NCBI RefSeq assembly: GCF_000020385.1
Contig: NC_010814.1
Coordinates: 3,630,001-3,662,000, forward strand
Length of the DNA stretch: 32,000 nucleotides
Direction of reading: 5' to 3'
From: Trichlorobacter lovleyi SZ
GTDB taxonomy: Bacteria; Desulfobacterota; Desulfuromonadia; Geobacterales; Pseudopelobacteraceae
Below are positions 6,344-8,875 of the stretch, one piece after another. The first letter of the stretch is position 1. Each line of letters opens with the position of its first letter. Made by a program: the position numbers and the translations under genes. The notes below the pieces were generated by a model. That model made no database searches. It was given only the letters and a program-made list of their open reading frames with translations, and had not been told where the DNA came from.

Positions 6344-8875
6344 TCAACTGCTGTGTCTGGAAGCACCATGAAGCAGTGCTTTATACAGCGCCTGCAGATA
6401 AGCATGACCATGGAGCAAATCAGGTTCCAAGTGGTTACCTTCAGCCCATTCATTCCAGGCCTTGATAAAAACGATTCGATCAGCAGGGTCTTTTCTTTGC
6501 TCAACCTTCCGCAGGGCATCTTCCAGCATCTCTCCAAACAACTCGGGCGTGGAGCCTTGCAGCACAAAACCGTTACTGCCGCTACGTGGTGTATTATCCC
6601 AGTTAGGCACTACCAGTGGGTATTCATTATCTGACAACTGGTACTGTTTCAAATACAGCACCAAGTCCTCATAGCGAGACACCTTGGGAACGGAATTGCC
6701 AGAAAGGGGAATGACAGGCACCAGAGGTGCATTCATGGAGACAAACGGCGCATTATCAACACAGGCCTGGCAGCCATACGTTTCAGGATTGCGCACGTTA
6801 TGAGCCACAAAGTATATACCGCCCAAACCGGCTTCCTGGGCTAATTGCTGCCAATATGAGGTAAAGAGACAAGCGTCCGGCAGATTGGTTGGAGCATAAA
6901 TTACAAACAGTGGCCTGTCATGCACTCTTAGATAACGCGGATCCCGGAATGCCGGCAGTAGTGTATCGAAGTGCGCCTTATAATCCTCAAGCCCAGGGTA
7001 AGTCTGTTCTATCAACACACGATCCGGTGCCCCGTGCCATATACCTGACCAGGTTTGGTTAGCCCAACCAAGACAGAATGGGAAGTCAGGCTGTCCTGTC
7101 CGCACGACCTCATCAAATGGTCGCTCCAAAAGCTGGTGTCCGGCAAACCAGTAATGCCAGTAACAGAAGGCGTCAACACCATAACGACGCGCCATTTCAG
7201 CTTGTTCTAGCCGTATTTCCGGCACTCTAAGGTCATAATAACCCAAATCAGCAGGAACATGAGGCTGATAATGTCCTTCAAAGAGAGGGACCGCTTTACC
7301 TACATTGGTCCATTCCGTGAAACCTTTGCCCCACCATCTGTCGTTTTCGGGGATCGGATGAAACTGGGGGAGATAGAAAGCGATTGCTAACGCACGCTTC
7401 CCCAAAGGCAGGATTGTTCCTGAATGTACAACATCACGGACATCAATCTGCTCTTTTAGATGCTTTGTCAGATTATTATGAAACAGTGCCGTAAGGTTAC
7501 CCATATCAACAATCGGGTCCCTGAGTCTCACATCAAGCAATGTTTGCAAGAAGGCATGATGCTCAACAGAATCGGGTGTATGCACAGCAACCTGCTTGAA
7601 GTCATCTTCCAGAAAGGTCCCCCAATTAGAGATGGCTGAAAAGGCTACCGTATCGACTCCCAAACTTTTACCAAGCTCTACAAAACCACCCATCTCTTTG
7701 AAATTGCTGACCTGCACAATCATACGCAGTACAATCTGCATATGCTTTCTATATTCCGACTTGGCAAGCCCCTCCAAATTGGATAACAAACGCGAAAAAA
7801 CACCACCTTTTCGAATTATTTCATAACTTTCTGGGGTTACAGCATCAACGGAAATCGCAATCAGGAATATCTTGTCAACAACTCTCGAAAGGACGGCAGA
7901 AAAACTCCCCTCTGTCAGCAACATGCCATTGGTGTCAATTCTGATTCGGATTGTTGGATATCTGTTCCAATCAAATTCAGCAAAAATCCTGCGATATACT
8001 GAGCTGGCGAGAGGATCACCGGCACCAGAAAACCAAAGTTCCTCAACTCCCAAGGGTATTGCATCCAAAACAGCCATATCTTGGGAATAGGTTGTTGCAG
8101 CCTCCTGAGGCGAAGCTACATAAAGCGATGTCCGACACGAAGGACACGCCAGATTACAGGTAGGATCATCATCAAAGGAAACAATACGAGGCACTCTACC
8201 CTCAAGGGCATCTTCAACCATAAAGTTGAGCCCCCTCGAGATAAGCTCGGAAGAGCAGAATAATTCGTAGGGGATCTGATAGGCGGTACTGTTCCGATAT
8301 TCTCCTAGACCTATCTTCTGCATGCCTGCGCATTTACGCTTGTCACAGTAGCGATAACTACCGTCTTTAATCGATTGGCGCAAGACACGAGCCACAGGAG
8401 AATGCCATATTTCCTCTAAAGACTGCTGGCGGATATTCCCTATGGAAAAGGGAAGATAACAGCAAGGAGACAAATCACCATTGGTGTGGAGTTCAAGATA
8501 AAGAAACGGATTGGGACAGATAATACCTGAAAATTCGTCACCATATGAATAGGTCGGTATGTTCACAAGCGATGGAATCGCAGCTTCACCGCCAGGACAT
8601 CCCCCATCAACCCCCAAGTAAGCATCAAAATAAGCCTGCCATCCCGGCGGAGGGGATGGAGACACATCTACAGCCAGTGACTGTAAAAACGTCTTTTCCG
8701 CCAAATCTGTAACTACCGTATTCGGGCACAGATCAATGCCTTGCGCATCATGCAATAGCGAGATCAAGGCAGCAGCGTGCTTCTTGATAAGTGTCAGTGT
8801 ACGATGATCTCGGCAGGTTCTAATAGCATTAGCCATACGGGACATCACTAGTTGAAGATAGTGGTCTGTATTCAT
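6344..8875 (-). CDS. Fusion protein: radical SAM domain (with an upstream SPASM/twitch-like Cys motif) plus C-terminal WbsX-type glycosyltransferase-like domain
   Basis: Radical SAM core: [14 protein letters not shown] (CX3CX2C), [36 protein letters not shown]. Upstream of the core: [20 protein letters not shown] (CX12GX4C), then [15 protein letters not shown] and YCDKRKC. C-terminal half: [27 protein letters not shown]...[13 protein letters not shown]...AWNEWAEGN, the WbsX-family signature. I chose the start at ATG 8875; the track start 8881 is a TTG two codons upstream. Confidence 0.75.
   Translation of the reverse strand: [843 protein letters not shown]

Follow-up and report, generated by a model that had tools for sequence, protein, structure and literature searches.

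Why would a bacterium join a radical S-adenosylmethionine (radical SAM) enzyme and a WbsX domain in a single polypeptide? The question is raised by Trichlorobacter lovleyi SZ, in which one 843-amino-acid (aa) protein carries a predicted twitch-like Fe-S domain, a radical SAM core, and a WbsX domain, in that order. The gene lies in the window analyzed here, a stretch of 32,000 nucleotides from contig NC_010814.1 (positions 3,630,001 to 3,662,000, forward strand), and coordinates below are counted from its first letter. We consider it somewhat better than an even bet that this fusion is a bifunctional glycan-tailoring enzyme, performing two coupled steps in a nonulosonic-acid (pseudaminic/legionaminic-type) surface-glycan cluster. 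The specific radical chemistry that we suggest for it, by analogy with known enzymes, carries much lower confidence than the coupled tailoring itself.

The protein is encoded by one uninterrupted open reading frame (ORF) on the minus strand, at 6344 to 8875 when counted from its ATG; an alternative TTG start lies two codons upstream, at 8881. Pfam assigns three domains: SPASM at aa 120 to 182 (49.5 bits, E 5e-13, cut-off 21.5; profile positions 1 to 66 of 67), Radical_SAM (PF04055) at aa 239 to 377 (29.0 bits, slightly below the gathering score of 29.5), and Glyco_tran_WbsX (PF14307) at aa 498 to 830 (447.9 bits against a cut-off of 25.1, E 4e-134; profile positions 2 to 350 of 350). The translation places CNLACPSC at aa 240 to 247 (window 8135 to 8158) and WNEWAEGN at window 6434 to 6457, and it further contains C120-x12-G133-x4-C138, C177-x4-C182, SGAGDPL, and DTNG. 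Pfam, NCBIfam, and the translation together bear out the preliminary description of this locus, made from the DNA alone, which had read a SPASM/twitch segment, a radical SAM core, and a full WbsX domain in that order within one 843-aa protein. With conservation read from eight fusion orthologs (alignment A1) and from a 56-member family alignment (A2), the layout is as follows:

6344 to 8875, minus strand: complete twitch-radical SAM-WbsX fusion ORF, stop codon included (ORF and Pfam; identical protein P0001 in four runs)
8522 to 8875, minus strand: variable N-terminal extension, aa 1 to 118 (alignment A1)
8318 to 8521, minus strand: predicted twitch/SPASM-like auxiliary Fe-S domain, aa 119 to 186, with C120, C138, C139, C177, and C182 (Pfam SPASM, Cys conservation)
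7478 to 8191, minus strand: radical SAM partial-barrel core with a conserved C-terminal extension, aa 229 to 466 (Pfam, NCBIfam, AlphaFold 2 [AF2] model, Foldseek)
7385 to 7477, minus strand: interdomain linker, aa 467 to 497 (alignments; gene break point in Halarcobacter, Arcobacteraceae, and Muiribacterium)
6386 to 7384, minus strand: WbsX (GH99-like) domain, aa 498 to 830 (Pfam, AF2/Foldseek, GH99 motif alignment)

The N-terminal extension is kept in the closest orthologs only; it is absent from P0005, P0008, and P0009, and a methyltransferase region takes its place in P0006 and P0007.

Because the two modules are separate genes in some genomes, a lost stop codon or a frameshift could mimic a fusion, and the single ORF might then be an artefact in which chimeric assembly or a frameshift error had joined two genes. 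However, the exact 843-aa product (P0001) occurs on contigs from four independent sequencing runs or assemblies. Eight further protein clusters from other samples, 47 to 72% identical, represent the fusion or a fragment of it, and one of them was located in the NCBI metagenome-assembled genome (MAG) GCA_018817515.1. Moreover, the orthologs that can be aligned at full length (63, 63, 53, 50, 49, and 47% identity) are single ORFs, and the three closest have in common a conserved linker of ~25 to 30 aa; the split versions have no such extra linker. We therefore regard the fusion as genuine, because the identical protein recurs in four runs and the orthologs keep both the frame and the linker, and we reject an artefact as extremely improbable; the earlier concern that two genes had been joined by error falls away. 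Public data already hold the fusion, one copy being annotated merely as "GH99-like domain-containing protein."

Evidence that the two halves belong together comes from their distribution. For the radical SAM module, the best 80 loci from genomes and 12 from metagenomes were searched with the window proteins, with up to 10 kb of flanking sequence examined on each side. Wherever the radical SAM module is at least 42% identical and the downstream side is readable, a WbsX domain or gene, 60 to 73% identical, follows immediately. At 37% identity or less, no WbsX was present within the fetched sequence (74 genome loci and 5 metagenome loci). At L102 (40% identity), the fragment ends inside the radical SAM gene, which leaves the downstream side unreadable. 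The pair takes several forms:

L014 (uncultured Geobacter MAG, the closest genome), L018 (Proteobacteria MAG), and the window lineage: fused radical SAM-WbsX
Halarcobacter L013, Arcobacteraceae L016, Muiribacterium L015, and metagenome contigs L096 to L098: split into adjacent or overlapping genes, in the order radical SAM then WbsX
L017, 6332 to 12175 (Deltaproteobacteria MAG): giant ORF of 1947 aa, joining a LIC12162-like region, twitch-radical SAM, WbsX, and a region like a 759-aa protein of the window
L034, 6245 to 12202 (Ignavibacteriales MAG): giant ORF of 1985 aa, joining a LIC12162-like region, twitch-radical SAM, WbsX, and a methyltransferase

P0006 and P0007 are methyltransferase-radical SAM-WbsX fusions. 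In Halarcobacter L013, the split genes occupy 8926 to 10014 and 10001 to 11095; the alignment of the radical SAM protein (362 aa) begins at the CPNPF twitch motif, runs to GNLT, and ends where the linker of the fusion starts. The order radical SAM then WbsX is kept in Geobacter, Ignavibacteriales, Arcobacteraceae, and Muiribacterium in spite of rearrangements elsewhere in the cluster, and at loci with readable flanks, the WbsX-linked radical SAM subclade was never seen without WbsX. This fused-versus-split (Rosetta-stone) pattern and the invariant gene order in distant taxa provide good evidence, at the level of sequence, that the modules function together. The dependence appears to run from the radical SAM module to WbsX and not in reverse, because WbsX homologs of 66 to 68% identity occur without a fusion-type radical SAM protein. 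The database search for the same architecture, proposed in the preliminary description, thus returned a pairing that is rare and conserved, fused or split, with WbsX at all readable loci of at least 42% identity. For a twitch-first radical SAM protein, partnership with WbsX is rare and specific.

The radical SAM half is itself unconventional. In NCBIfam alignments, aa ~120 to 185 match positions ~240 to 400 of NirJ2, GeoRSP, TIGR04053, and AlbA, and aa 239 to 415 match positions ~10 to 185 of W_rSAM_matur and AhbD. These profile alignments, which make the permuted order plain, are far above chance level. The putative auxiliary domain (aa 120 to 182) lies N-terminal to a core that starts at aa 229 to 240, not at the canonical C-terminal SPASM/twitch position. 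The cysteines of the SAM cluster (C240, C244, and C247; CX3CX2C) are invariant in the 8 orthologs and the 56 family members, and the five N-terminal cysteines (C120, C138, C139, C177, and C182) are invariant or almost so in both alignments. SPASM proper has seven or eight conserved cysteines that include CX2CX5CX3C; here there are five and the last pair is CX4C, from which we infer a one-cluster twitch domain and not a two-cluster SPASM domain. The description of this segment as SPASM-like therefore stands by its Pfam score, and a two-cluster SPASM assignment does not.

The AF2 model of aa 100 to 490, built on the family alignment, predicts a single compact unit (pLDDT 92, pTM 0.90). Foldseek against the PDB matched only the barrel, with radical SAM barrels at E ~2e-8 and probability 1.00; the neighbors were NifB, viperin, SuiB, BlsE, DesII, SkfB, MoaA, and anSME, all at TMq <= 0.45, and no solved structure in this search gave collinear coverage of a twitch domain before the barrel. 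A PDB sequence search with the whole protein returned nothing at E <= 1. The split Halarcobacter ortholog scores 36.2 bits for Radical_SAM, and on Pfam, predicted fold, and this score together, the half is treated as a member of the Radical SAM superfamily.

The best NCBIfam match of the whole module is NF033640 (N_Twi_rSAM, twitch domain-containing radical SAM protein), which aligns aa 119 to 411 with positions 4 to 306 of 398 at 69.4 bits, below the curated cut-off of 170 that sets NCBI membership. A profile search with the module found 3,635 representative proteins (clusters set at 50% identity) at E <= 1e-30 among 1.84 billion, and a pattern scan found 443 twitch-first radical SAM loci in species-representative genomes of many phyla. 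The domain order had been called unusual; the auxiliary domain does precede the core, but in a family that is already named and has this many members. A literature search for "N-terminal SPASM" or "N-terminal twitch" returned no paper using either phrase, and no characterized member of NF033640 was found in the literature, so the twitch-first architecture is catalogued without a characterized member. The preliminary remark that no radical SAM-WbsX enzyme was known to have been characterized agrees with our literature search, which found none, and with the lack of a sequence relative in the PDB.

Other twitch-first radical SAM proteins are fused to GT2, hexapeptide acetyltransferase, methyltransferase, or sulfotransferase domains, and the family overall seems wired to group-transfer tailoring enzymes. 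Standalone twitch-radical SAM homologs of ~33% identity (in Sphingosinicella and on a JGI contig) are not in glycan loci and are therefore uninformative on function. As a separate observation, P0182, P0188, P0189, P0186, P0192, and P0178 are Sulfotransfer_3 or methyltransferase fusions or have two radical SAM units in tandem, some of them also with two twitch domains.

Turning to the other half, standalone WbsX proteins of ~350 aa are 55 to 69% identical to the WbsX domain of the fusion, and WbsX candidates at E <= 1e-10 number at least 8,000 among those scored. Fusion orthologs were not among the top 120 matches of the search for WbsX-domain homologs, and the rarity of the fusion was judged from the radical SAM module searches. 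In Foldseek, the nearest folds to the AF2 model of the domain (pLDDT 89) are GH71 and the endo-alpha-mannosidases of GH99, human MANEA among them (TM ~0.55 to 0.6); in the PDB, the WbsX profile had weak matches (E 0.5), all of them to GH99 chains. The WbsX profile alignment sets the invariant WNEWAEG (E809 and E812) onto NEWHEG of GH99, the motif that contains the catalytic Glu pair. As judged from predicted fold and motif, the WbsX domain is a clan-level relative of GH99 and not a GH99 member. Mutants in a Burkholderia gene annotated wbsX are phage resistant and have predicted O-antigen defects (PMC13391952). A literature search found no functional study of WbsX/PF14307 or of GH99-like WbsX, and its "WbsX" results were dominated by the filarial antigen WbSXP.

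What glycan might such an enzyme act on? The window is a glycan cluster on a single strand, with NeuB, a GNAT protein, a PseC/LegC-like aminotransferase, and a PseF-like cytidylyltransferase. It also has a WbuX amidotransferase with HisH and HisF homologs, a B12-binding radical SAM protein, GT9 and GT2 glycosyltransferases, several methyltransferases, and a TPR protein. We take WbuX with the HisH/HisF homologs to point to acetamidino formation, and the glycan pathway is that of a nonulosonic acid with a predicted acetamidino group and probably a phosphoramidate. Upstream of the fusion lie the following:

8896 to 10929, minus strand: LIC12162-family transferase (TIGR04331, 539 bits), directly upstream of the fusion and itself fused to radical SAM-WbsX in L017 and L034
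10950 to 13229, minus strand: 759-aa protein with no Pfam or NCBIfam match, kept upstream in Geobacter-like loci and part of the giant fusion of L017
13186 to 19801, minus strand: Cj1415-1418-like CDP-phosphoramidate cassette (APS-kinase-like protein, formyltransferase-like protein, NTP transferase, C26 amidotransferase, PPDK-like kinase)

The most constant companions of radical SAM-WbsX are the LIC12162-family gene and nonulosonic-acid genes, and all WbsX-linked loci lie in nonulosonic-acid glycan clusters. Most radical SAM-WbsX loci also have the cassette, whole or in part: it is present in the window, at L005/L014, L007/L018, L011, L013, and L017, and on the P0007 contig, whereas the sequence fetched for L015, L016, and L034 showed none of it. 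In the cassette, the PPDK-like kinase matches NF004508 (996 bits) and the APS-kinase-like protein matches PRK05541, while the best match of the C26 amidotransferase is gamma-glutamyl-CDP-amidate hydrolase at 82 bits, below the cut-off of 250. In the O-methyl phosphoramidate route of Campylobacter jejuni, four enzyme types, Cj1415-1418, make CDP-phosphoramidate 3'-phosphate (PMC11800397). The data suggest that phosphoramidate-type glycan decoration extends well beyond Campylobacter, to Geobacter-like bacteria, Arcobacteraceae, and other MAGs.

We propose the following mechanism. The radical SAM module would bind SAM at the C240/C244/C247 cluster, and one auxiliary [4Fe-4S] cluster, held by four of the five N-terminal cysteines, would serve as an electron relay. 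The module would take a hydrogen from a sugar carbon, either of a nucleotide-activated precursor or of an already attached residue, for a redox-type tailoring reaction (oxidation, epimerization, or deoxygenation), by analogy with BtrN or DesII. The WbsX barrel, with its GH99-type E-W-x-E pair, would form or remodel the glycosidic bond of the same residue, and the fusion would channel the intermediate from one step to the next. The preliminary description had likewise suggested radical chemistry on the sugar handled by WbsX, a reading that stays a hypothesis here.

Several points weigh against coupled tailoring of this kind. The radical chemistry is assigned by analogy, and the structural neighbors, with similar E-values and TMq <= 0.45, do not separate sugar-acting from nucleotide-acting or peptide-acting radical SAM enzymes. 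"Glycosyltransferase" is an annotation label for WbsX, the predicted fold and motif being those of a glycoside hydrolase clan. Standalone WbsX of 55 to 69% identity is very common without a twitch-radical SAM neighbor, from which it follows that WbsX is generally not dependent on radical SAM. Also, the fusion of neighboring genes indicates a shared pathway and not necessarily consecutive steps on one atom. It is a real possibility, if not a likely one, that the two modules work as separate tailoring enzymes in one pathway, were fused only because their genes lay side by side, and act on different residues or positions without mechanistic coupling or channeling. The same loci do contain many variable fusions, with methyltransferase-radical SAM-WbsX in P0006 and P0007 and LIC12162(-methyltransferase)-radical SAM-WbsX in L017 and L034, which suggests a general tendency to join cluster genes, and the WbsX homologs of 66 to 68% identity without a fusion-type partner point the same way. 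Such a tendency, however, accounts poorly for an order and adjacency that are invariant in distant taxa despite rearranged clusters, or for a radical SAM subclade that was never seen without WbsX.

Most SPASM/twitch enzymes are protein or peptide maturases, and the radical SAM module might likewise modify a glycan acceptor protein (flagellin or S-layer) or the WbsX domain itself, much as anSME acts on sulfatases. Its best matches outside N_Twi_rSAM are the W-cofactor oxidoreductase maturase, the sactipeptide protein StsB, ScmE, and PqqE, and SuiB, SkfB, and anSME are among its structural neighbors; moreover, the absence of Wzx, Wzy, and ABC polysaccharide exporter genes from the window and the presence of a sigma-54 activator (31090 to 31932) fit a protein-glycosylation island. 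Nevertheless, when all fetched loci were searched for flagellin, the WbsX-linked ones had no such gene, nor does any of them contain a precursor-peptide-like gene, and the fusion partners across the family are small-molecule or glycan group transferases. WbsX as the maturation target is disfavored, since thousands of WbsX proteins lacking a radical SAM partner conserve the same cysteines to an equal degree. We judge a maturase role quite improbable. A bolder proposal, which we put forward as unlikely but consequential, is that the twitch-first radical SAM module, WbsX, and LIC12162, with a methyltransferase in some lineages, form a previously unrecognized radical-dependent machine decorating nonulosonic-acid and possibly phosphoramidate-bearing glycans. 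There, the radical SAM module would carry out a sugar modification without known enzymology, for example C-H functionalization or epimerization of the attached nonulosonic acid or its neighbor. The product of this radical step would be the substrate of the GH99-like WbsX domain, which would then not be a conventional Leloir glycosyltransferase.

Several neighbors of the fusion deserve description in their own right. The LIC12162-family transferase (8896 to 10929) or the 759-aa protein (10950 to 13229) may be a nonulosonic-acid or phosphoramidate transferase; the idea that the 759-aa protein is a relative of LIC12162 was rejected, as a direct comparison shows the two to be unrelated. A literature search found no functional study of LIC12162/TIGR04331, nor one that links radical SAM enzymes with nonulosonic acid. 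Within the cassette, the conserved formyltransferase-like gene (14713 to 15525) and small unassigned genes have no counterpart in the Campylobacter pathway.

Directly downstream of the fusion, at 5387 to 6328 (minus strand), lies a second radical SAM gene, for a 313-aa protein of conventional order with CX3CX2C near its N terminus and a Cys-rich C-terminal tail. It was considered as a paralog of the radical SAM module of the fusion and rejected, the sequences being unrelated; it is found in the window lineage and is absent from the same position in the 63%-identical Geobacter-type locus. Also downstream of radical SAM-WbsX, at window 380 to 826 (minus strand) and at L001, 18050 to 20348, is a conserved block. 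It codes for a TehB-like methyltransferase, another aminotransferase of the LegC/PseC-like type, and a cupin of ~145 aa that matches WbuC weakly. Its carriers are the window lineage, the Geobacter-type locus, the P0007 contig, and Halarcobacter, and it resembles an amino-sugar branch, which may provide the substrate.

Farther along the minus strand, the B12-binding radical SAM protein (24539 to 25993) has the aminotransferase on one side and the PseF-like cytidylyltransferase on the other, and it may methylate the nonulosonic acid; the same arrangement recurs beside a standalone WbsX on the P0063 contig. The PseC/LegC-like aminotransferase (25987 to 27528, minus strand; 513 aa) has an N-terminal extension of ~125 aa with weak similarity to CBS and the C-terminal part of KpsF-GutQ, which is unusual among DegT-family enzymes. 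The only confidently assigned plus-strand gene is an IS3-type transposase (HTH_21 and rve; ORF 21164 to 21991) in an element that spans 20821 to 22030 and is flanked by imperfect inverted repeats of 21 nt (20821 to 20841 and 22010 to 22030). The WbuX-like amidotransferase gene (19850 to 20875) has the left repeat within its 5' end, and its family match begins only at profile position 64; the IS3-type element probably truncated this gene.

The component domains are of known kinds, and the twitch-first order is that of an already named family. The novelty lies in recognizing a specific and conserved radical SAM-WbsX(-LIC12162) module that is tied to nonulosonic-acid and phosphoramidate clusters; the preliminary description had left out the nonulosonic-acid cluster, the CDP-phosphoramidate cassette, and the LIC12162 transferase. 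One subclade of each of two large families, twitch-first radical SAM and WbsX, is tied through the fused or split pair to a defined glycan pathway, and because cultivated relatives such as Halarcobacter exist, the pair offers an accessible starting point for experiments. Were the coupling mechanistic, the fusion would provide the first direct link between a radical SAM step and a glycosyl-processing domain, as well as a view of how an auxiliary Fe-S domain can function in front of the barrel. Were it not, the fusion would be one more multidomain enzyme of a hypervariable surface-glycan locus. Should the radical-dependent machine exist, it would provide the first function for the large N-terminal-twitch radical SAM family and for WbsX.

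Comparison with known systems places each part of the locus. The four enzyme types of C. jejuni Cj1415-Cj1418 are matched by the window cassette, a likeness by type and not by direct protein comparison; to our knowledge, the C. jejuni O-methyl phosphoramidate cluster has neither a radical SAM nor a WbsX gene. In the WbsX family, nearly all close relatives listed are single-domain proteins of ~350 aa, whereas here WbsX is the C-terminal half of a radical SAM fusion. Its likeness to GH99 is at the level of fold and motif only: the GH99 fold, with GH71, is the closest, and E-W-x-E-G aligns with the catalytic NEWHEG.

For the radical SAM half, DesII, BlsE, and viperin are among the top structural neighbors of the barrel, and deoxy-amino-sugar pathways offer a similar context of aminotransferases, N/O-methyltransferases, and dehydratase/epimerase genes. 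However, DesII, BlsE, and viperin give no significant sequence-family match to the window protein, NifB and SuiB have E-values at least as good, and DesII and viperin lack an auxiliary cluster. BtrN, anSME, SkfB, SuiB, and AhbD/NirJ share with the window protein a CX9-15GX4C hairpin, downstream cysteines, and the radical SAM partial barrel. A BtrN-type twitch domain is defined by a single auxiliary cluster, and the cysteine count of the window protein fits such a BtrN-like cluster. Compared with canonical twitch/SPASM enzymes, the window protein has its auxiliary domain before the core, and its last cysteine pair is CX4C instead of CX2C(X5CX3C). The nearest likeness is to NF033640 (N_Twi_rSAM), which has the same order, twitch N-terminal to the CX3CX2C core, and is collinear with the window protein; the latter scores below the cut-off of that family and falls in a separate subclade, one whose members are all linked to WbsX at readable loci.

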